From sequence record PZ154896.1: 64,000 bases of DNA. One strand, given 5' to 3'. This document shows positions 1,579 through 40,354 of the stretch, piece by piece (the stretch's first letter is position 1; each line of letters starts with the position of its first letter). Both the position numbers and the translations under genes were made by a program. The DNA comes from a phage. A model generated the notes under the pieces. That model ran no database searches. It was given only the letters and a program-made list of their open reading frames with translations, and was not told where the DNA came from.

Positions 1579-3267
1579 TTATGAAACAGTCATTACAGTA
1601 AATCGTCCAACTTTGCTCATTTGAAGATGTTGTCCATAAGCTTGTGGGTCATGGTCTCTGTGACTAATTATAAACACGTTTGCATCGGTTAGAGAGTTAA
1701 GAATTGTTGAAATAGCTTTAATACCTTCAGAATCAGTCGCGGAATCCATGACTTCGTCCATAATTAATGTATTGATTCTAACACCAGAGACCTTTTCAGC
1801 AATATCTCGCCATGTAAACAACAATGCGATATCGATACGCGCTTTTTCGCCTTGACTAAATGAAGCATAACTGAACTCTTCACGGCCACGTGATTTTATA
1901 GATTCATTGAATTCTTCATCAATAGAAAACACGTAATCAGCTTCCATGATTTTAAGATAATGGTTAATCTGCTTGTTGAACAGAGGCACATATTTTTTAA
2001 TGATAGCACCTTTAATACCGGAATCTTTTAACATATCTGTGATAATACCACGATGGTATTTTTCAAGAACGATATCTGATTTTGTTTTAATGATTTTATC
2101 AAGTTCTTTTTGAAGCAAAGCTATCTCATCAGCGTGGTCGATAAATTCCGCCGAGGCTTGTTCTATTGCAGCTTTAACTTTCTTAGCTTTATCAATAGTG
2201 GCAATCATTGCTTGTTTCTTGGTACGAATATCAGATGCAAGGTCCTGTTTAGTCTTAACATTAGCTCTATATTCGTCCACTAGGACACTCAGATTATCTC
2301 TGTGGCATGTAAGTTGCTCGAATGAGTGATTACATTCATGAAGCTTATCGGTAATCTTAGTGACAATAGGATCACCCTGGTGCAACTGTGATGCACAAGT
2401 AGGACATGTACCACCATCATGATACATCTTAATAACTTTGTTATACGAGTCAATTTTAGATTTAATCAAGAATGCTTCTTGTCCTATCTTGTTGAATGCC
2501 TCAGTAGGGTCTTCGTCAAGAACGATATTAAGTAGACGCTCATTAGCTTCTTCGATTTCTGCTTTTAATGAACGAGCTTCTTTGGCTAGGTCGTCATACA
2601 TGTTCTGTAGACGCGCTACGTTATCACCAGATAATTTCTTTTGACGTTCGATATTCTCGTTATAAATCTTAATTTGTTGGATAATACCATCTTTCTTGGC
2701 ATCGAGAACTTGACCCTGGGAATTAAGTTCTCGAACTTGAGACTTATTGATTTTATCCATTTCGGCGAGTGTGCCGACTTCTAAAAGGTCTTCGACAAGT
2801 TTTCTACGAGCAGGGGTGCTAAGAGCCATGAAAGGGGTATACCCTGCCGTCCCAAGCACAACGATTTGTTTAAAAGACGCGTATGACATTCCGATGCTAC
2901 GTTCAAATTCTTCTTGGAAGTCACGACTGCTGGCAGATTCATCAAGACGAACACCGTCAACGGAGATTTCGAAAATATTGGGCTTTTGGCCACGTTTAAT
3001 GAAGTATTTTTTACCATCGAATTCCATCCAAAGCTCAACTAAGAGCTCTTTCTTGTTCGTGCTATTAATGATTTGCCCTTTCTTAACATCACGAAATGGT
3101 TTACCGAAAAGTCCGAAAGTAATGGCTTCTAACATCGTAGATTTACCACCACCATTTTTACCTGTGATTAAGGTCTTTTGGACTTTATCTAATTGGATAT
3201 CGATAAAATTTTGCCCAACAGACATTATATTTTTATAACGAACACGATTTAATTTAAATGATTTCAT
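1579..3267 (-). CDS. 46: recombination endonuclease ATPase subunit, SbcC/Rad50-like (gp46)
   Basis: 562 aa; N-terminal Walker A GKNGGGKST, long coiled-coil with CPTC hook, C-terminal LIMDEV Walker B. Confidence 0.9.
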   Translation of the reverse strand: MKSFKLNRVRYKNIMSVGQNFIDIQLDKVQKTLITGKNGGGKSTMLEAITFGLFGKPFRDVKKGQIINSTNKKELLVELWMEFDGKKYFIKRGQKPNIFEISVDGVRLDESASSRDFQEEFERSIGMSYASFKQIVVLGTAGYTPFMALSTPARRKLVEDLLEVGTLAEMDKINKSQVRELNSQGQVLDAKKDGIIQQIKIYNENIERQKKLSGDNVARLQNMYDDLAKEARSLKAEIEEANERLLNIVLDEDPTEAFNKIGQEAFLIKSKIDSYNKVIKMYHDGGTCPTCASQLHQGDPIVTKITDKLHECNHSFEQLTCHRDNLSVLVDEYRANVKTKQDLASDIRTKKQAMIATIDKAKKVKAAIEQASAEFIDHADEIALLQKELDKIIKTKSDIVLEKYHRGIITDMLKDSGIKGAIIKKYVPLFNKQINHYLKIMEADYVFSIDEEFNESIKSRGREEFSYASFSQGEKARIDIALLFTWRDIAEKVSGVRINTLIMDEVMDSATDSEGIKAISTILNSLTDANVFIISHRDHDPQAYGQHLQMSKVGRFTVMTVS

Positions 3268-3518
3268 ATGTATTCTCTTCGAATGAAGTCCTCTACATAT
3301 TTTAACATGTCATCTCTATCAGCAAAATATTCATCTAGTTCTGCGTACATAACAACACCCGGTGCGTACTCACAGGTAACATACATTGTTCCAAAGAAAC
3401 GAGGAGTTGATTCCTCGTAATTCTCAGTCCATTCAACGATACCAATATAACCGTCACCAATACTAAATTCATGACGATGGATTTCGTAATCAGTCTTCGT
3501 CATTATACGCGTCCTCAA
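3264..3518 (-). CDS. hypothetical protein (46.1 position)
   Basis: 84-aa acidic ORF between 46 and 47, overlapping stop/start. Confidence 0.45.
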   Translation of the reverse strand: MRTRIMTKTDYEIHRHEFSIGDGYIGIVEWTENYEESTPRFFGTMYVTCEYAPGVVMYAELDEYFADRDDMLKYVEDFIRREYI

Positions 3519-3747: not shown

Positions 3748-4763
3748 TGTGTTGCCTCAATATAAAGTTCGTTGGAATATTTGACCAGCGCTTCTCTGTC
3801 TTCGTCTGAGATATCTGGAATCGCGTCAATATATTCTTTAATGATATCTTGAAGTGATTTAATCTCGATTTCCTGGTCATCATCAGATTCAACACTGTTA
3901 TCAACTTTAGAAACCATACGAAGAGAGTGAACTACTTTTTCAAGTTCAGATTCAAACTTAGTCAACTCTGAATCAATTTCTGATACTATAACACGTAAGG
4001 CTAGATTAGTATAATCAGAATAATTGATTTTGCCTTTAAACGGATAAGTGATTCGTCGATGCCATGTTGTTTCATTAGGAATAAATTCCATACGTTCAAC
4101 ATCAGTGTCAAATACCCAGAATCCGCGCGGGTCGTTCTCATCACCTGCAGTAAGTGTCCATGGTGTCCCAATATATTTAACGTTAGCAGCTTCAGAGATT
4201 GTGTGGAAGTGGCCGGACCAGACTTGTTTATAGGTCTTTAAGAAATCAGGTTCAAGCCCATGAGACTTCATTCCTTTATAGAAATAAAAGCCGTTCAGTT
4301 CCCAGTGACCAACACAATACGCGGCAGAAGAAGTCTTGATGTGCTCTAAGATTTCACCTGTATTTTCTTCACACATCCATGGAACGATATCAATTAGACA
4401 TCCGTCAAAATCTACAGTAGTTGGATGCTCATAAATAGTAAAGTTTTCAAATTGAGTTAACAATTCAGAAACAGTGTTAGGTGTTATTGTATTCTTGAAC
4501 GCCATGTCATGGTTTCCTATCGTGACATGAACGTGAATGCCTGCTTTAGAAATCATATCAACGATTTCACGATTGAATTCCATTGTACGATGTGTTATTG
4601 CTTTACGGACGTCAAACCAATCACCGTACTGAATCCAAGTTTTAATCCCGTGTTTCTTAGAGTATTCAATTGCTTGACGAATACCATCACGTTGAATATC
4701 TTGAACCCATGGGTCGTCTTGTTTGACTCCGATATGGAAGTCGCCTAAGTGCAAAATTTTCAT
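3744..4763 (-). CDS. 47: recombination nuclease subunit, SbcD/Mre11-like phosphoesterase (gp47)
   Basis: 339 aa; N-terminal MKILHLGDFH metallophosphatase motif, GNHD motif; size matches T4 gp47. Confidence 0.9.
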   Translation of the reverse strand: MKILHLGDFHIGVKQDDPWVQDIQRDGIRQAIEYSKKHGIKTWIQYGDWFDVRKAITHRTMEFNREIVDMISKAGIHVHVTIGNHDMAFKNTITPNTVSELLTQFENFTIYEHPTTVDFDGCLIDIVPWMCEENTGEILEHIKTSSAAYCVGHWELNGFYFYKGMKSHGLEPDFLKTYKQVWSGHFHTISEAANVKYIGTPWTLTAGDENDPRGFWVFDTDVERMEFIPNETTWHRRITYPFKGKINYSDYTNLALRVIVSEIDSELTKFESELEKVVHSLRMVSKVDNSVESDDDQEIEIKSLQDIIKEYIDAIPDISDEDREALVKYSNELYIEATQ

Positions 4764-5008: not shown

Positions 5009-5047
5009 GCACAATCACCTCTCAGAAAATACCTAAATCGATTTCTC

Positions 5048-5269
5048 TCATCGTTTCCACCATTTCTTAACTTGAAATGAATCAACCCACACGAGTTGTT
5101 TTGGGTCTGCCTTTACAATAGGTGGACAAATTTCTGTAATAGAACTGTCGTGATATTCCTTTTCAGAGATTTTAACACAAAGAGGACCTCCCAATTTAAG
5201 GGTGAACCCTGCGTTCAGCTTCAGACGTTTAAACTTTGTTTGAACTAGCGCCATTAATGATGTCCTCAA
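5048..5269 (-). CDS. hypothetical protein
   Basis: 73-aa ORF between 47 and 55. Confidence 0.35.
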   Translation of the reverse strand: MRTSLMALVQTKFKRLKLNAGFTLKLGGPLCVKISEKEYHDSSITEICPPIVKADPKQLVWVDSFQVKKWWKR

Positions 5270-5552
5270 TAGCCTGACGAGTAGTAACCCACTGGATTTT
5301 AATTAACTTGTCATTATATGGTTGTCGTAGAATATCCCGAGATTTCTTAATAGCATATTCGTAAGCTTCGAAGTTGTTTTGAATTGCTGCTTCTTGAGCA
5401 TGAGCATAAAGACGGTTTAGTTCAAAACGATTCTTTTTAAGAATCTTTTCGGATTTTTTACGTGCTTCAGCTTCATTTTTCTTTTGGATTTCTTGTAGCA
5501 TTTTAGCTACTGCATCTTCTGCTTCTTTATTTTCAATAATCTCGGTAGTCAT
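5229..5552 (-). CDS. hypothetical coiled-coil protein
   Basis: 107-aa ORF, Lys/Glu-rich helical. Confidence 0.45.
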   Translation of the reverse strand: MTTEIIENKEAEDAVAKMLQEIQKKNEAEARKKSEKILKKNRFELNRLYAHAQEAAIQNNFEAYEYAIKKSRDILRQPYNDKLIKIQWVTTRQAIEDIINGASSNKV

Positions 5553-5553
5553 A

Positions 5554-5763
5554 TTATCTCATTAAATTAAAATAAAAACGTCCATCCTCTTCAATACAGA
5601 ACTCATACTCAACTGGAGTCCCATTTATCGAAAATGACACGTCATGTGGGTTCAAAGGGTCGATGTCAAAATTAATTTTAAATTCACGACCCAACAGTTT
5701 TACCAAATAAGGGATTGCTTCGTCAAAAGGTTCTTCTAAGTAGTTAGAGATGTCAATTGTCAT
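5554..5763 (-). CDS. hypothetical protein
   Basis: ORF shortened to an internal Met to avoid overlap with gene 55 3' end. Confidence 0.3.
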
Positions 5764-6310
5764 CCTCATATAAAAAATCCAAACTAGGCGAATCGCTAAC
5801 AACTTCCTTCTTTTCAGCCCCAGGAGCTTTATAAGCGGATTCTTCATAATGCGTCATTTTATCGTAGATGTCTTGAATAAACGTTTCATCTACCAACGCT
5901 ACCATATCATCGTCATGACTGTCGTAGACATTATGAACGAAGTAACTATATTTCTTTGCAACTTCCTTACGTTCTTTTTTGATACGTTGGACAAAAGCAT
6001 TAAAACAAGCTCGAGTTATGTATGCATGTGGGTTATTGTACTTAGTTTCGTCGAAATTATGAAGTCCCTTAATAGAGGCTTCAATCCCATCTGCAATCAT
6101 CTCCTGCTTCCAAGACTGGGTATATCCTGAAAAGTTGAAACGTTTGGACAGGCCTTCGGCGATAAGCATAATTGCTAAACCGATGGTATCATTCTGACGA
6201 ATAATTTTGTTTGGGTCTTTATTATTTAAGAGCTCCTTTTTCCACTCGATTATAGCGGCGAGAAGCTCTTTATTATTCACATAATTATTTTTAGGTTTTT
6301 GTTCAGTCAT
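5753..6310 (-). CDS. 55: late-transcription sigma factor gp55
   Basis: 185 aa, size and recalled sequence match T4 gp55. Confidence 0.88.
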
Positions 6311-28652: not shown

Positions 28653-28982
28653 TTATACTCTAGGCTTTTGAGCTTGTTTGGTATTGGATTCCCATGCGGC
28701 TTTGGTAATTTTGTTAGCGGCATAACCAAAGGCATTAGATAGAACACCTTTAGAGTTGAATACATCCAATCCAATAAGTACACCTGCTGTGTTAAATTTA
28801 GGAGCAAAGTACGCATTAGTTTTAGAAAGAGCTTTTTTCAATTCAGGGTCTTGAACCAAGCCATCAAAAACGCCTTTACCATTTACTTTATATGTTACTT
28901 TGGGATTTTTAGCTTCTTCGATAGCAGCTTTCTGTTCCGCAGATAGTGTAACTTCAGTAATAAATTCTTGATAGGTTTTCAT
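28653..28982 (-). CDS. internal-protein-like capsid-targeted protein (IP family)
   Basis: starts MKTYQEFITE (capsid targeting sequence, IxE cleavage motif); 109 aa. Confidence 0.65.
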   Translation of the reverse strand: MKTYQEFITEVTLSAEQKAAIEEAKNPKVTYKVNGKGVFDGLVQDPELKKALSKTNAYFAPKFNTAGVLIGLDVFNSKGVLSNAFGYAANKITKAAWESNTKQAQKPRV

Positions 28983-31621: not shown

Positions 31622-32080
31622 TTATAGAAGGGTAGTGAGCACCTTATATAATGATTTGCCCATTACATATTCCCATTGAGAAGGTTTAATTAAAGCGAAT
31701 GCATCAAATTCAGGAATCTGTCGTCCGTCTGGGAACGTATGATAGGAATTACAAACACTGTTTCTGAATTGCTCGTGCTCTACAGGGATGGTATATAGGA
31801 ACAGATGAATATTCTTATTGTCTGAGTAATGATGTTCACCTAGGTCTTTCAGGAAGGCAGGGTCATATTGTGTAAACCCAGTTTCTTCTTCGCATTCACG
31901 AATAGCTGCTTCAATAGGAGATTCACCGGGCTCGACACGACCTTTAGGAATATCCCACCGATGAGCTAAAGAACCTTTAGGACGAGAACCAGTTACACGG
32001 CCCATGAATAACTCTTTATCTTTTGTCATGAAGATAATACCAGCTGATAGCTCTTTCACTTTATTTTTCTTACTCATCAT
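31622..32080 (-). CDS. nudE: Nudix hydrolase
   Basis: Nudix box GRVEPGESPIEAAIRECEEETGF; start taken at MMSKKNK. Confidence 0.75.
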   Translation of the reverse strand: MMSKKNKVKELSAGIIFMTKDKELFMGRVTGSRPKGSLAHRWDIPKGRVEPGESPIEAAIRECEEETGFTQYDPAFLKDLGEHHYSDNKNIHLFLYTIPVEHEQFRNSVCNSYHTFPDGRQIPEFDAFALIKPSQWEYVMGKSLYKVLTTLL

Positions 32081-32568
32081 CTCAAATTCCTGCATTCGGT
32101 AATAAAACGTTCAACTTCATTATTCTTGGCTTTTATCTTGTCTTTATGTTCTTGTAAACTACTTTTAATAAGATTAATAATGATGGCGGCGGTACCGCCG
32201 CCAATGATGCCACCAACAACACTTATGATACTAGATGCTAATAAGATAGCAATAATATCAACAAAACCGAAAGAACTCACCTTAGTACTGAAAAACCATA
32301 TAGACGGTACAAATATAATCCATCCTGTTATCCATTGGCACTTATTGAAAAACCTTTCAAGCTCAGCTTGAGTTGTTCGTATTACTTCATCGATAGGTTG
32401 ATATCCATTAATGTATCTGTTCACGATAATACCTGCTGGCTGGTCGATTTTAAATTCTTGGCAAATATTTTTCACTAAGTAGGATGGACATCCTGTCCAA
32501 TCTACTGAATAGTATGAAATACCTTCATTGCCATCGTCTATATTAGACCAATATGTTTTGTTAATCAT
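32077..32568 (-). CDS. membrane protein with C-terminal ERFITECR tail (FIKECR family)
   Basis: 163 aa; hydrophobic segments; conserved C-terminal tail. Confidence 0.5.
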   Translation of the reverse strand: MINKTYWSNIDDGNEGISYYSVDWTGCPSYLVKNICQEFKIDQPAGIIVNRYINGYQPIDEVIRTTQAELERFFNKCQWITGWIIFVPSIWFFSTKVSSFGFVDIIAILLASSIISVVGGIIGGGTAAIIINLIKSSLQEHKDKIKAKNNEVERFITECRNLR

Positions 32569-33254
32569 TACCAGCCTTCCATAGGAAATTCCAGATAAAC
32601 TTGAGCATTGACACGAATTTCATTGGTAATCTTTTTAACTCGGTCTGTATTACGAGATACACGTCCGAACCAACGCCATCCATTACTAATTGCACGAGAA
32701 CCAGTGTGCCATGTTTGCCAATCAAACTGAAGAAGAGTACGATCTGGAGCTTCCCATTTCTCTAGTTCACCTTTTTCAATTTTTTCGAGGACTTCTTTGT
32801 GCCACTGGCGATAGATAAGTTCGCCATCAGGAATCTGACTGAACTCTGCAGTTCCTGTTGCAAAATGAGTAGGACACACATCAGCGTTAACAAGACCAAG
32901 AATATGTTCAGAATAGTAACGAGGGTTGTCATAATCAGGTTGTCCTGCAGTAATAAAGTGTTGACCAACTGGAATATCAGGGCGTGGTACGTCATCATGG
33001 TGATATCCAGGAATAGCAGGATACCAACCAGGCATCAGCATGTGAACTCGTGAATCAAATACTACATCCGAGTCTTTCCAATCGTCAGGAAGATTTTGGA
33101 TAAAGCTACGAGTAATTGGGCCGCCATTATCAAAAGCAAAATTCAAATCGCAGTTAAAAAACATAGGCTCGTTTTTAATCTGGTCGTTTTTAATCGCATG
33201 AGCAAAACCACCTACTGCACGAGCTTGACTATTAAACACTTTAGAACTATTCAT
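32568..33254 (-). CDS. hypothetical protein
   Basis: 228 aa; Trp/His-rich. Confidence 0.5.
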   Translation of the reverse strand: MNSSKVFNSQARAVGGFAHAIKNDQIKNEPMFFNCDLNFAFDNGGPITRSFIQNLPDDWKDSDVVFDSRVHMLMPGWYPAIPGYHHDDVPRPDIPVGQHFITAGQPDYDNPRYYSEHILGLVNADVCPTHFATGTAEFSQIPDGELIYRQWHKEVLEKIEKGELEKWEAPDRTLLQFDWQTWHTGSRAISNGWRWFGRVSRNTDRVKKITNEIRVNAQVYLEFPMEGW

Positions 33255-33255
33255 A

Positions 33256-33561
33256 TTATTTTCCTCGACATTCTTTAATGAAATTTTCTAGATTGGTAGA
33301 TTCAATAGCTTTTTTACGAGCTTCCGCGTGTTCTTCTTCAGACAATTTACATTTATAATTGACCCAGACATTATGGTCAAAACTAGTCGTGGCATATAAT
33401 AACAATGCTCCAACGAATAGCAAAAACGGTGATAAGAATACAAAACCAGGAACACCATCCATATCGTAAGCCTTTTGTAATACTGCAACAGAAAGGGCTG
33501 CGTAAAAAGGTGATGCAAATATTGTTAAAAGACCAATTCGGTTGGTTTCGCCTAATTTCAT
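33256..33561 (-). CDS. membrane protein with C-terminal ENFIKECR tail
   Basis: 101 aa; two hydrophobic segments; tail ...LENFIKECRGK. Confidence 0.5.
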   Translation of the reverse strand: MKLGETNRIGLLTIFASPFYAALSVAVLQKAYDMDGVPGFVFLSPFLLFVGALLLYATTSFDHNVWVNYKCKLSEEEHAEARKKAIESTNLENFIKECRGK

Positions 33562-33580
33562 ACTATTCTCCTCATGTTTT

Positions 33581-33620
33581 AATAGGACTACTATAACATA
33601 GTCCCTATAATTATGTAAAC
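33581..33620 (-). promoter_or_regulatory. PeSL-like early promoter cassette
   Basis: rc: GTTTAC, near-perfect inverted repeat ATAGGGACTA/TAGTCCTAT around TGTTATAG. Confidence 0.55.
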
Positions 33621-33632
33621 AGTTTTGCGAAA

Positions 33633-34589
33633 TTATTTGAAAGGTTTTACCATATGGAAATTTTGTTTGAAACGTTTGACGTAATCATCATGTCCTAAGC
33701 TTTGGTACATACTTACTACTTTGCTGTAGTTTTCCCAGGCATACTCACGGAACCAACCAGAGGTGATGCTTGTACAGACTTTTTCTAATGCCATCATAAA
33801 ACTGGCTTCAGGGTTAATTTTAAAGTCATTAGGAATCTGAGAACGTTCTAATGCTAGTACACATGATTCTTCGTATACACCGGCCAATTTGACCATTTCT
33901 GGTAATGATTCGAACTTCTCACGTGAGGTCATGACTTCAGAACCGTCTTTCATATAAAATGTATACGCTGGACGGTCTGTTAGTGCAATGGCTTCATGAA
34001 TAGTATCATGGTCATATGTATAGATATCATCTTTAAAGAACGCACTTTTAGAAGTGTCAAGAACCGGGTGAGCATAGTTCAAGGTTTCTTTCTGGCGTTT
34101 CAGCATAATTTCAGTAAGTTCATCGTTCAGTGTAACACCTTTACCACGAAGATACTGAATATGGTTCATAGTCTTTAAAAAGAACGGATTATTTTTCTTG
34201 AAACGATGAGACATCTTAATTGCAAGACATATCTCAGGAGTTGCCCAGTAAAACCCATTCAAACGGTCTTTAGACAAATGTTTCTTGGCGTATTTTAAAA
34301 GGTCATAAGAAGACGTGAAATCTTCAGGAGTGAGTTCACCGACTAATTCACGGACATTAGTGATTGCCGGAACAATATACGCTTCAAAATGAGTTTCGCG
34401 TCCATTATGGAAGCATTTGAAAACTTGGACATCAGGGTTATCTTGATGAACATATACACCCATCATTTGATTTTTGAATGTATTCCAAGAACCTTGGTCT
34501 GCAATAAAGTCCCAGTCACTATTTTTGATAGCGTTAGAATCAATAAGACCATGATAGTGAAGTGCACGAGAACCAATAACTAACATCAT
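33633..34589 (-). CDS. nucleotidyltransferase-fold protein (putative)
   Basis: 318 aa; N-terminal IGSRALHYHGLIDSNAIKNSDWDF fits GS...DxD motif. Confidence 0.4.
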   Translation of the reverse strand: MMLVIGSRALHYHGLIDSNAIKNSDWDFIADQGSWNTFKNQMMGVYVHQDNPDVQVFKCFHNGRETHFEAYIVPAITNVRELVGELTPEDFTSSYDLLKYAKKHLSKDRLNGFYWATPEICLAIKMSHRFKKNNPFFLKTMNHIQYLRGKGVTLNDELTEIMLKRQKETLNYAHPVLDTSKSAFFKDDIYTYDHDTIHEAIALTDRPAYTFYMKDGSEVMTSREKFESLPEMVKLAGVYEESCVLALERSQIPNDFKINPEASFMMALEKVCTSITSGWFREYAWENYSKVVSMYQSLGHDDYVKRFKQNFHMVKPFK

Positions 34590-34617
34590 AATATTTTCCT
34601 CGGATTAATTCATTAAC

Positions 34618-34857
34618 TTAAATTTCACGACATGCGATATCATATTCATCCCAGAGGTCATCGTGTGAAGCCTCTACCAATGGAACGATTGTACCATTTA
34701 TGTCTTCATTATAAGGGCAAATTGTACAGTGCGCATCTTCGAATCGAATGCCTTTGTGTTCAGATTTTTTATAACGCATATCGAATATCTTTGCAAACTT
34801 TTCACGAGTAATGGTTTTAGCAACCACTTCGGTTCCAACACTTTCGTAATAAATCAT
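34618..34857 (-). CDS. hypothetical Cys-containing protein
   Basis: 79-aa ORF. Confidence 0.45.
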   Translation of the reverse strand: MIYYESVGTEVVAKTITREKFAKIFDMRYKKSEHKGIRFEDAHCTICPYNEDINGTIVPLVEASHDDLWDEYDIACREI

Positions 34858-34875
34858 TGTGGACTCCGTTTAATT

Positions 34876-34915
34876 TGATAGGACTACTATAACATAGCCC
34901 TATCTTGTTGTAAAC
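34876..34915 (-). promoter_or_regulatory. PeSL-like early promoter cassette
   Basis: rc: GTTTAC, inverted repeat GATAGGGCTA/TAGTCCTATC. Confidence 0.55.
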
Positions 34916-34919
34916 TGTT

Positions 34920-35117
34920 TTAGCAAGAATAACTAGATGATACCCAGCCTTGAACAGTAATACTATTATTTGATACCGAGATCGCGTTCTGGAGATTCAG
35001 ACCTGCGTTATCTTCAATCCATAATGTAACTTCTTCGCGTTCTTCTGTTGCAATTTGGAACAGGTTTTCCAGGGCAGCTACTGCCGTACGTACAGCACAA
35101 TCTAATTCACGAGACAT
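34920..35117 (-). CDS. small protein, WxSSxxC-tail family member 1
   Basis: 65 aa; ends ...GWVSSSYSC. Confidence 0.5.
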   Translation of the reverse strand: MSRELDCAVRTAVAALENLFQIATEEREEVTLWIEDNAGLNLQNAISVSNNSITVQGWVSSSYSC

Positions 35118-35126
35118 ATGATTTCC

Positions 35127-35399
35127 TTAGCAAGTGTGAGAAGATGCAATCCAACCACCAGTTTCGAGGCTCAGATTGTAGTCGTATTGGTAAACGTCAG
35201 CCCATTCAGCATAGCCGTTTTTTGTACAACGTTCAAGATCGGCTTTAAGATGTCCGGGTGAATGATAGGTTCCACCCATACCATAAGCTGGACACAAGTC
35301 GAATGTTGTGTTTTGTTTATCAGCAATTTCTTTGGCAGCCTCAATAGCTGCATAGATTTTTGCTACAGCTTCAGCCAGTTCGGTTTGTTCTTTAGACAT
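35127..35399 (-). CDS. small protein, WxSSxxC-tail family member 2
   Basis: 90 aa; ends ...GGWIASSHTC. Confidence 0.5.
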   Translation of the reverse strand: MSKEQTELAEAVAKIYAAIEAAKEIADKQNTTFDLCPAYGMGGTYHSPGHLKADLERCTKNGYAEWADVYQYDYNLSLETGGWIASSHTC

Positions 35400-35408
35400 A
35401 GTGATTCC

Positions 35409-35714
35409 TTAGCACAACGCAGAAGACGAAACCCAAGCACCTTCAGTAATAACGTAACCATTACCTTCACGCTTAACATCGCCACCATTATTTTCAATTT
35501 CATTTTTCATCCACTGGGATACGATTTCACCCTTAGGATAATAAGTACGACCGCTACCATAATCACCTACAGAAAATGATACGGCGTATTGGTCTGCGAT
35601 CTTTGTTGCTTCTTCTTCGATACGTTCAGCTTGATTCAGAAGTTTATAAATTGCATCTGAAGCGGATTTGGCATCATTAAACTCTGGTACTTTAATTTCA
35701 ATAATCTTACTCAT
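35409..35714 (-). CDS. small protein, WxSSxxC-tail family member 3
   Basis: 101 aa; ends ...GAWVSSSALC. Confidence 0.5.
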   Translation of the reverse strand: MSKIIEIKVPEFNDAKSASDAIYKLLNQAERIEEEATKIADQYAVSFSVGDYGSGRTYYPKGEIVSQWMKNEIENNGGDVKREGNGYVITEGAWVSSSALC

Positions 35715-36070
35715 TTTCTACATTCCTTAATAAAGTTTTCTATTGTTTCATTTTCACGTCTAGCTAGGAGTTCATTATAACTAATCATTTGAGAAGCGTA
35801 AACCTTTTTATTTTTCTTGTTATGGTTTATAAAATCGTAGTAAAAATAGACTACAGTACAAAATGATGCGATGGATGCAAAGGCTTGGGTATACCGTAAG
35901 TCCTGCCATTGGTCTGTGAATCCACCAGTGTTCCCTATAAATCCTAACACAACGCCGTCAATAAGAAATCCAACTAATCCAAAGGCAAATCCCATGCCAA
36001 TACTCATAATAAAAATTAGAATGTTCTCACCAAGAGAAGGCCATACGGTTAAGAGTTGAGGCTTTTGCAT
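35711..36070 (-). CDS. membrane protein with C-terminal ENFIKECRK tail
   Basis: 119 aa; hydrophobic segments; stop overlaps next start (ATGA). Confidence 0.5.
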   Translation of the reverse strand: MQKPQLLTVWPSLGENILIFIMSIGMGFAFGLVGFLIDGVVLGFIGNTGGFTDQWQDLRYTQAFASIASFCTVVYFYYDFINHNKKNKKVYASQMISYNELLARRENETIENFIKECRK

Positions 36071-36444
36071 CTTATTTCCTTAACGAATTCCATAGCTTCT
36101 TCATATTCATACTTTTTAACAGCTTCATCATACTGAGCTTGGGCTTTTGCGCACTGAACTTTCCATTCTCTTAATCGGGCTCTGTGATGACGTCCTTGGT
36201 ACCAATATCCCACCCAGTTAATAGGCATTAATAAAAATGGTACAATAAACGACCCGGCTATAATAAGTAAAAACACTGCATCAGACGATATAACTTCACT
36301 AGAATCTAAAACAGCTCCTATAATCATAAAGATTAAAAATGCTAAAGCTAAAATAGGGCCAAATAGTACTTCATTTGGGATTAATTTACGCTTGTATTCG
36401 TATGCCCAGGGCTTAATTGGCATGTACAGGGTTGGCTTTGACAT
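36049..36444 (-). CDS. membrane protein with EFVKEIRCK tail variant
   Basis: start set at MSKPTLY; two TM-like segments. Confidence 0.45.
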   Translation of the reverse strand: MSKPTLYMPIKPWAYEYKRKLIPNEVLFGPILALAFLIFMIIGAVLDSSEVISSDAVFLLIIAGSFIVPFLLMPINWVGYWYQGRHHRARLREWKVQCAKAQAQYDEAVKKYEYEEAMEFVKEIRCKSLNS

Positions 36445-37009
36445 ATTCTCTACATTCCATAATAAATTGCTCAAGGATTAAATTGTTAGTGAAATTAGGA
36501 CTAACAACCATGGTTTCATAAAGCGCATCAATAGCACTTAAAGCATCAACTCTTTTAAGCAAAGGCTTGCCTTCATACATAGTTTCAGAATCGACGATTA
36601 ACGTAAAGTAATATTTTTTATTATCGACTAGAACTTCAGTATCGATATAAAACATGTTAGACCTTAAGAGCTTATCTCTAAAACCATAATAATCTTCAGA
36701 GCGTTCGCTGATATATTCCCATTCAGTGTTTAAACAACAAACAGACCATGTAGGAGCAACGAAATCAGTGAATCTAATATCATGGTCTGCAACTAGTTTA
36801 GCAATAGCTCCGATATCATGAATCATAATACCTGGGGCTAATAAAGATTTTCGGTTATTTGCATATTCAGTTGTCTCATAAGAAGACGACCAGTACCATT
36901 TACGTCCAGTTGCAACATATCGTAATGAATCAACTAAAGACGTAGGTGGATTTACCTTATTTCGGAACTCTTCGAACATTGAGTCAATATCATTATTTTG
37001 GTTTCGCAT
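36413..37009 (-). CDS. hypothetical protein with FIMECR motif near C-terminus
   Basis: about 198 aa from MRNQNND. Confidence 0.45.
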   Translation of the reverse strand: MRNQNNDIDSMFEEFRNKVNPPTSLVDSLRYVATGRKWYWSSSYETTEYANNRKSLLAPGIMIHDIGAIAKLVADHDIRFTDFVAPTWSVCCLNTEWEYISERSEDYYGFRDKLLRSNMFYIDTEVLVDNKKYYFTLIVDSETMYEGKPLLKRVDALSAIDALYETMVVSPNFTNNLILEQFIMECREYVKANPVHAN

Positions 37010-37058
37010 GTTAACTCCTTTATTATCCAAAAGGAGGACCTGAGTCCTCCGTATTATT

Positions 37059-37652
37059 TTATTTCAAAGAGTTAATATATTCTTGTACATCGGCAGAAGT
37101 GGTTTCGACACCAGCTGGAGTGCCATTGAACGTTTCAACACGAGTCAGAGTGTCTTCGATATCAACCTTAGTCAGTGCAGCGATTTCAATTACATCATCA
37201 GCCGTAGAGATACCAAGGGCATTAGCTGCTCGAGTTTCACGAATGTATTCGAGTTTGATTGCCAGATTCTGACGAGCATCGTCAAGTTCAACCACCTTAC
37301 GAGCAATTTCAATTCGCATAGCGGCATACCCGTCAGCTTTTGTATTAAGTTGTTCGGCAGTTCGACGATACAGAAGACCAAGCTTGGCATGCATGGTAAC
37401 ATCTTGACCTTCAGCCAGGAGCTTACGAATTTCACGTTCCTTAGAAGCGGCTTGCTTATTCTTTTCATTAACAAGTTCGCGAATACGTTTTTCTTCATTA
37501 ATAGATTTAACAGAAGCCGTTTTTAGTTCTTTGATTTGGGTAATCAACTTATCTGCAGCTGCGTTATACTGTTCTTCGACAGTCAGATTTTTAGCCATAG
37601 CAGTACCCAGTTTAGTGCGGATGAATTCAACAAGTTTCTTCAGTGTGTTCAT
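37059..37652 (-). CDS. coiled-coil protein, possibly PspA/IM30-like
   Basis: 197 aa from MNTLKKL; continuous heptad pattern; weak recalled resemblance to PspA N-terminal region. Confidence 0.35.
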
Positions 37653-37681: not shown

Positions 37682-37722
37682 TCCAACGAGAGCATTATAC
37701 TCTGCTCTCAAGAGTTTGTACA
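37682..37722 (-). promoter_or_regulatory. early-promoter cassette, near-identical copy of 7049-7093
   Basis: about 45 bp with 2 mismatches versus the 7049-7093 element. Confidence 0.5.
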
Positions 37723-40199: not shown

Positions 40200-40276
<77 letters not shown>

Positions 40277-40279
40277 GAT

Positions 40280-40354
40280 TGGTGACCCTGGCTGGTTTCG
40301 ATCCAGCTACCTATCAGTTATGAGCTGACAGCTCTCCCATTGAGCTACAGGGCC
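40280..40354 (-). tRNA. tRNA-Met/Ile (anticodon CAT)
   Basis: hand-folded cloverleaf: acceptor GGCCCTG/CAGGGTC, D-arm GCTCAATGGGAGAGC, anticodon loop CTCATAA, encoded CCA; 3 nt from tRNA-Arg. Confidence 0.7.

Follow-up and report, generated by a model that had tools for sequence, protein, structure and literature searches.

Tail-bearing genes between e.6 and nudE

Five open reading frames (ORFs), O1 to O5, on the minus strand of a 64,000-nucleotide stretch of phage DNA (sequence record PZ154896.1; the whole stretch is called the window) encode proteins that end in variants of one short peptide, here called the tail or tag. The window comes from a T4-like Mosigvirus, and the region is ~97% identical to phages SF, TH58, and HX01. 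The genes lie in the e-to-tRNA region, which is one of the classic hyperplastic regions of T4-type genomes and is full of ORFs of unknown function. The minus strand carries, in order, a homologue of T4 e.6 (37059-37652; 197 amino acids (aa), 88% identical to T4 e.6), O5, O4, O3, three small ORFs, a 79-aa ORF, a DUF7275/7277 protein gene, O2, the gene for a 228-aa protein, O1, nudE, and the e lysozyme gene. The T4 order is e.6, e.5, e.4, e.3, e.2, nudE, e, and the window keeps O5-O4-O3...O1 between e.6 and nudE.

O5 (36413-37009, 198 aa), the first gene after e.6, encodes a soluble alpha/beta protein with the tail LEQFIMECREY and the C-terminal end LEQFIMECREYVKANPVHAN; in the predicted structure the tail lies within the helix of residues 177-192, and its core, F-I-M-E-C-R, is encoded at 36449-36466. 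O4 (36049-36444, 131 aa) is composed of a transmembrane (TM) hairpin, a 53-aa basic linker, and the tail AMEFVKEIRCKSLNS, in which Ile takes the place of Cys (core F-V-K-E-I-R, 36070-36087). O3 (35711-36070, 119 aa) is a TM hairpin protein with the tail IENFIKECRK (core F-I-K-E-C-R, TTT ATT AAG GAA TGT AGA, 35717-35734). O2 (33256-33561, 101 aa) has two TM segments, a 39-aa basic linker, and the tail LENFIKECRGK (core F-I-K-E-C-R, TTC ATT AAA GAA TGT CGA, 33265-33282). O1 (32077-32568, 163 aa) has a soluble N-terminal domain, a hydrophobic region at residues ~78-134, a basic linker, and the tail VERFITECRNLR (core F-I-T-E-C-R, TTT ATT ACC GAA TGC AGG, 32089-32106), and its stop codon overlaps the nudE start at 32080.

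Translation of the minus strand confirmed the five ORFs, with the coordinates and C-terminal ends that a sequence-only reading of the window had given them. Six-frame translation of the whole window produced exactly five matches to the pattern F[IVLM].E[CI]R, namely the O1-O5 tails, each 1-11 residues from a stop codon; shuffles of residues or codon blocks produced 0.4-0.5 matches anywhere, with a maximum of 3-4. Hydropathy identified TM-type hydrophobic regions in O1-O4 and none in O5, in agreement with the four clear membrane proteins of that reading. Because the segments past the last TM region of O1-O4 are rich in Lys and Arg (8-11 residues), the tail of these four is predicted by the positive-inside rule to be cytoplasmic. 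The description of the group as inner-membrane proteins with a cytoplasmic tail therefore holds as a prediction for O1-O4 and fails for O5, which is soluble.

Based on profile matches and synteny, O1, O3, O4, and O5 are orthologues of T4 e.2 (long form), e.3, e.4, and e.5, and are assigned to phrog_2203, phrog_2330, phrog_2604, and phrog_2607, respectively (e.2 is also found in PHROG 35263). O2 belongs to phrog_9798, which occurs in Mosigvirus records only. All matches are full length, with an E-value of 5e-53 for O1 to phrog_2203 and 4e-68, 4.5e-50, 2.5e-61, and 1e-94 for the other four ORFs. Searches of Pfam, NCBIfam, and PADLOC returned no significant match for O1-O5 or e.6, and the anti-phage defence and counter-defence profiles of PADLOC likewise returned nothing significant for the adjoining genes. 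According to precomputed annotations, the e.5 family has a recent Pfam accession (PF26876), which is missing from the local copy of Pfam.

The tail is present in T4 itself, where e.3 ends in EFVIDCRKIK, e.4 in KFVKESRCKSQS, and e.5 in EKFVKECREYVK... In T4, e.2 (102 aa) has been shortened by truncation or a frameshift, whereas close relatives retain the full 162-aa gene with its tail. The missing 3' part persists as an unannotated 51-aa ORF between e.2 and nudE of T4 (positions 4473-4628 of the locus extracted for comparison, minus strand); it ends in NNFITECRKLK and overlaps the nudE start. Annotations of T4 e.2-e.6 go no further than unknown, conserved hypothetical, or predicted membrane protein. 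Knock-down of these genes had no laboratory fitness effect (PMC11879866 supplement), and all five are early transcripts whose proteins were detected by mass spectrometry (PMC9697503 supplement), which answers, for the T4 orthologues, the objection that such ORFs might not be translated. The HIDEN-SEQ main text makes no mention of e.2-e.6, literature searches on the e.x gene names returned noise or nothing, and the motif strings were not found in the searchable literature. A shared tail and a link to e.6 are absent from every annotation found; the genes are thus known, while their common tag and its linkage to e.6 are apparently undescribed.

Breadth of the tail and constraint on its codons

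Comparison of 72 T4-like loci anchored on e.6 revealed 3-7 tail-bearing ORFs per genome across T4-like genera, and the motif itself is conserved in phages that infect Escherichia, Klebsiella, Enterobacter, Serratia, Erwinia, and Aeromonas. The tail-bearing ORFs form ~25 clusters that are not linked by BLAST, ~20 of them convincing, so the five-member group of the sequence-only reading was drawn too narrowly. Most families are TM-hairpin proteins of 100-190 aa. O5 and about eight other families are soluble, among them the e.5-like ones and several of ~100 aa.

The consensus of the tail is Φ(-3)-E-x-F(0)-[IV]-x-x-[C, rarely I/V](+4)-[R, rarely K](+5)-basic, and all tails lie 0-15 residues from the C-terminus. 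Weighted by family, Cys occupies +4 in 79% of tails (otherwise Ile or Val) and Arg occupies +5 in 93%, with the Phe set by the search pattern. Positions outside the pattern are also non-random: -3 is Leu or Ile in 54%, -2 is Glu in 47%, +2 is Lys in 42%, and +6/+7 are basic. Position +3 is Glu in 42% of family-weighted tails and Gly, Gln, Asn, Ser, Met, or Tyr in other genera. Four residues (-3, 0, +1, +4) form a hydrophobic stripe with an arc of ~100 degrees on an otherwise charged helix. Since whole families replace the Cys by Ile or Val, it acts as a small hydrophobic residue, and roles as a redox, metal, catalytic, or modification site were ruled out on the same grounds.

The five ORFs had been taken for a paralog family. 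With the tail masked, hhalign comparison yielded a probability below 40% for every pair of membrane families, so no homology between them was found, and O5 is not a membrane protein; only two e.5-like families (1 and 3) remained linked (81%). With the tail included, many pairs scored 80-96% in collinear TM-linker-tail alignments, and the only weak cross-match was that of O2 to phrog_2203 (E 0.0019), covering the TM region and tail. The tag is thus the shared element, because the families that carry it are not detectably homologous once it is masked. The tag is common to the families, and the architecture of TM hairpin, basic linker, and tail applies to O1-O4 and most families, with collinear alignments of 80-93% if the tail is left in, but not to the soluble ones; these comparisons do not demonstrate that the protein bodies descend from one ancestor.

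The tail codons had also been read as the Shine-Dalgarno (SD) sequence and start of the next gene. The junctions in the window are stop/start overlaps without a spacer. The 228-aa gene takes its SD and start from GGA AAA TAA T ATG, which follows the O2 tail core (SD GAGGA, 7 nt, then ATG). O3 has the SD AAGGA followed after 8 nt by the next start in A-ATG-A; O4 has AAGGA followed after 6 nt by the ATG within AGA-TGC, with the last base of the Arg codon serving as the A of the O3 start. O1 has AGGAA followed by the nudE ATG, and the O4 ATG begins 4 nt past the Arg codon of O5. Among the collected tails the next start codon falls -3 to +15 nt from the Arg codon in 68%, and an SD of at least 4 nt is present in 80%. 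The SD has no fixed position relative to the peptide motif; its placement is bimodal, ending either at codons +2/+3 (AAG-GAA, encoding K-E) or at +5/+6 (AGG-AAA and similar).

The core codons behave differently. In 126 distinct tail-coding sequences from 22 families, codon usage is near background, with Phe encoded by TTT/TTC at 60/40, Ile by ATT, ATC, or ATA, and Cys by TGT/TGC at 39/40; Arg is encoded by AGA, AGG, CGT, CGA, and CGC, with AGR enriched (62% vs 33%). The O2 and O3 tails differ by five synonymous and no non-synonymous changes over eight codons (5/24 positions). Recent gene conversion among paralogous tails was ruled out, as synonymous sites between these two are saturated. Pooled Nei-Gojobori estimates from 17 families compared the nine tail codons with the rest of the gene. 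The proportion of synonymous differences (pS) is 0.50 in the tail and 0.51 in the remainder, while the proportion of non-synonymous differences (pN) is 0.139 and 0.265, respectively, with the tail lower in 16 of the 17 families; pS falls to 0.21 in the codons after the Arg. Because the codons vary freely, tail pS equals gene pS, and pN is halved, it is selection on the protein that maintains F-I-x-x-C. The ribosome-binding site of the next gene is dual-coded with the basic end and with some of the variable positions. The coincidence of tail codons with the next SD and start accordingly stands for residues after the Arg and partly for +2/+3, and does not extend to the Phe, Ile, and Cys codons. 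The comparison of codon- and protein-level conservation proposed in the sequence-only reading hence places the tail under protein-level constraint, and synonymous variation in the core codons contradicts a purely nucleotide-level similarity. The tail is a peptide-level module and not a nucleotide element, and it offers a clear example of dual coding, in which a protein motif lies over the ribosome-binding site of the next gene and a codon-by-codon comparison can tell the two constraints apart.

Linkage to e.6 and explanations of the tail

The tail is confined to the region downstream of e.6. When gene-strand ORFs with the motif at most 20 residues from the stop were counted in the 72 loci, 164 of 169 lay 0-7.5 kb downstream of e.6, and the remaining five, from the other 490 kb, are short (48-68 aa) and doubtful as ORFs. 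Immediately after e.6, the next ORF has the motif in 35 of 38 distinct cases; in the other three this gene is split by a frameshift, and its 3' piece bears the motif. The array is headed by e.6 in every genome examined. In Aeromonas (Biquartavirus) and Pseudotevenvirus phages, e.6 has been relocated between nrdD and nrdG and is followed by a gene of 263-326 aa, unrelated in sequence to e.5, that ends in ...VELFVDYCRRTASKK or ...MEKFIHSCKKNV...; it is the one tail-bearing gene seen near e.6 in these phages. The earlier account placed the ORFs in the e-to-tRNA block, and missed both that the arrays start right after e.6 and that the pairing survives the relocation of e.6.

Conservation of e.6 is far above that of its neighbours, with 55-100% identity in Tevenvirinae-like genera and 31-53% beyond, and the gene was found in 1110 phage records. 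Invariant patches of the protein lie at residues 88-99 and 133-141 (KLEYIRETR). The e.6 protein has no Pfam, NCBIfam, or PDB-sequence match above noise. Its structural model contains an N-terminal helix and a helical hairpin of 55-60 residues, the layout of PspA/IM30/ESCRT-III proteins, although among fold matches BAR domains outscore PspA, Snf7, and Vipp1; the similarity is of a generic, non-specific coiled-coil kind, and e.6 lacks a sequence-profile match to PspA/IM30/ESCRT-III or BAR-type proteins. Residues 1-15 of e.6 (37610-37652) include an invariant F10 and K14 and a nearly invariant I11, and they resemble the tail core as Φ-x-E-F-I. This N-terminus is helical, with low confidence, in the AlphaFold2 model, and it may compete or pair with the tails.

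Our preferred explanation, held tentatively and at somewhat less than an even chance, is that the tail acts as an amphipathic docking helix at the C-terminus and tethers variable, mostly inner-membrane proteins to a common partner, for which e.6 is the best candidate. The typical carrier would be a TM hairpin with both termini in the cytoplasm, followed by a charged cytoplasmic linker of 30-50 residues with the tag at its end. The stripe, flanked by charges, would allow the helix to pack into a groove of a protein partner, and the tag would in this way link a fast-evolving set of adaptors to one conserved protein. As a conserved helical-hairpin protein encoded at the head of the array, e.6 would be the leading candidate, and early in infection it would then be drawn to the inner membrane, or arranged there, on the cytoplasmic side. 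We infer helix docking, the partnership with e.6, and any physiological role from these patterns of conservation and gene order. A more specific version, which we think unlikely, makes e.6 a hub that binds a Φ-E-x-F-I-x-x-C-R helix and the array a collection of interchangeable membrane adaptors plus one soluble subunit, together a modular membrane-associated scaffold for host takeover or counter-defence; if so, the tag would let recombination at the 3' ends of genes add new adaptors.

Short C-terminal docking peptides that converge on one hub are known from the clamp-binding tails of T4 gp43, gp33, and gp55 and from the C-terminal tip of SSB. These share with the tag a single short conserved terminal peptide on diverse proteins and conservation confined to the peptide; they differ in that their sequences are unrelated to the tag, its carriers are membrane proteins, and the hub is here only a candidate. 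Through the tag, ~20 families are united and tied to one highly conserved gene, so that they can be approached as one testable system, and a tag-binding partner, once identified, would give context to all of them together. The tag also provides a simple sequence rule for spotting members beyond the reach of homology searches.

The tails might instead bind one another, perhaps together with the N-terminal helix of e.6, in a helical bundle that builds hetero-oligomeric membrane complexes of interchangeable subunits. Coiled-coil packing typically relies on a narrow hydrophobic stripe of this sort between charged flanks, the 3-7 tail proteins per genome are co-transcribed and translationally coupled, which favours stoichiometric co-expression, and the e.6 N-terminus (L-V-E-F-I-R-x-K) resembles the tail core. 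We nevertheless consider such a bundle improbable: a conserved core of nine residues is short for a stable one, and because a single tail gene is seen near e.6 in the Aeromonas and Pseudotevenvirus phages, hetero-assembly cannot have been the ancestral role (homo-oligomers are possible).

Somewhat more doubtful is a host protein as the partner, with the tail as a short linear motif bringing effectors to one host target or machine or mimicking a host C-terminal peptide. The tail genes are early, non-essential, fast-evolving, and hypervariable members of a hyperplastic region, as is typical of host-takeover and anti-defence genes, and the motif is conserved across phages of all six host genera, which a conserved target in the host would lead one to expect. 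Such a role leaves the strict association with e.6 unexplained, and no host protein with the motif was identified, host proteomes not having been scanned for it.

The tail is C-terminal and amphipathic, basic residues follow it, and most of its carriers are membrane proteins, so an in-plane membrane-binding helix of the MinD/FtsA type was considered, which would keep the soluble members membrane-bound and press the linkers of the TM members flat against the bilayer. This is quite unlikely, as the tail lacks the broad hydrophobic face of such helices, having just four residues on the narrow arc described above, and the rest of it is highly charged, with acidic residues included. Conservation of specific residues, with Phe, Cys, and Arg retained over ~20 families, is not expected for lipid binding, and TM proteins need no membrane anchor.

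A nucleotide junction element, either an SD or translational-coupling signal or a recombination linker for cassette shuffling, with the peptide as a by-product, is very improbable. The proximity of the next start and SD, the low pS after the Arg, and the AGR enrichment at the Arg are in its favour, as are ORF-precise indels at junction microhomology (in phage SF, copies of GAGATGA bracket a 78-aa ORF that the window lacks). Against it, the core codons are fully variable synonymously, the Arg switches between AGR and CGN, pS is unchanged where pN is halved, the SD is bimodal in position, and synonymous sites have reached saturation between paralogues of the same genome, so that recent gene conversion is ruled out. 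The PeSL-type promoter-stem-loop cassettes of T4-type phages are conserved at the DNA level in an intergenic spacer with a stem-loop and promoter, whereas the tag junctions have no spacer. A junction element can explain the post-Arg residues and perhaps the spread of the tag, but not the retention of F-I-x-x-C-R.

In kind, the tag is closest to the T4 capsid targeting sequence (CTS), a conserved amphipathic peptide of ~10 residues with an F-I core on hypervariable, unrelated proteins of hyperplastic loci; it differs in sequence, in position in the protein, and in the type of carrier. The idea that the tail is a C-terminal version of the CTS with its gp21 protease site (I-x-E|), serving prohead targeting or late clipping, draws on the local resemblance of the CTS of this phage (MKTYQEFITEARV) to the O1 tail and on the I-x-E of Tequatrovirus and Mosigvirus tails, and it was rejected as close to negligible on comparison with genuine CTS sequences, which are N-terminal, gp21-cleaved, and led by an obligatory M-K-T-Y, with Glu at -1 and +3 in every genus examined, while tails of other genera have any residue at -1 and non-Glu at +3 and keep the C+4/R+5 that the CTS lacks, and while their carriers are mostly integral membrane proteins, which cannot be packaged, encoded by early genes.

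Promoter-like sites and neighbouring genes

Promoter-like sites are restricted to three gaps, and a single stem-loop is present, after e.6. A sigma-70-like sequence on the minus strand upstream of e.6 (37694-37722, 10/12 consensus matches) probably drives, by this match to the consensus only, early transcription of e.6, O5, O4, O3, and the genes after them. A second consensus match (33590-33619, minus strand, 10/12 with a TG extension) lies in the gap upstream of O2. Between e.6 and O5, a GC-rich stem-loop on the minus strand (37033-37050) has a perfect 7-bp stem, GGAGGAC-TCAG-GTCCTCC, and is followed by a T-rich stretch; possible roles are to reduce read-through out of e.6 into the array or to stabilise the e.6 mRNA at its 3' end.

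The natural Mosigvirus isolate p000v has lost O3 except for its last 90 nt, which retain 96.7% protein identity (positions 5991-6090 of its locus). O3 is therefore dispensable, the downstream ribosome-binding site having been kept. This arrangement, in which the last 30 O3 residues matched alone, was at first a candidate chimera and is a partial deletion, not a fusion. In SF, VR26, and IME341 an extra acidic ORF of 78 aa lies between the e.2-like gene and nudE. The SF copy (3071-3307 of its locus) is flanked on both sides by the 7-nt GAGATGA, of which the window has one copy (32077-32083) and no ORF; the difference is an ORF-precise indel at stop/start microhomology.

Conservation across genera is very strong for the 228-aa protein (32568-33254, minus strand), which contains the motif PGYHHDDVP and ends invariantly in ...NEIRVNAQVYLEFPMEGW. 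Pfam and NCBIfam gave no match to it, and one record names it a 2OG-Fe(II) oxygenase. Its gene always sits within the tail-gene array, immediately upstream of the e.2-like gene.

A second tail-sharing family consists of tandem small soluble proteins of 65-101 aa (34920-35117, 35127-35399, and 35409-35714, minus strand). These phrog_899/phrog_4882 proteins share the ending W-[VI]-[SA]-S-[SH]-x-x-C, in which the Cys is the last residue of the protein (WVSSSALC, WIASSHTC, and WVSSSYSC; WFNSSMSC and WYPSSC in other phages). The family also occurs in VR26, as five tandem copies (5009-6277 of its locus, L004), and in loci L003 and L005. It adjoins the genes for the DUF7275/DUF7277 protein and the 228-aa protein, and its members could be modified peptides or proteins.

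Seven minus-strand ORFs of the window open with an internal-protein CTS (starts at 28982, 29398, 30018, 30342, 31102, 39460, and 42186), with beginnings such as MKTYQEFITEA..., MKTFKEFICEA..., and MYTFNEFLAE..., and these internal-protein genes flank the e-to-tRNA block on both sides. Two tRNA genes (Arg-TCT and Met-CAT) are located at 40200-40354 on the minus strand, compared with eight in T4.

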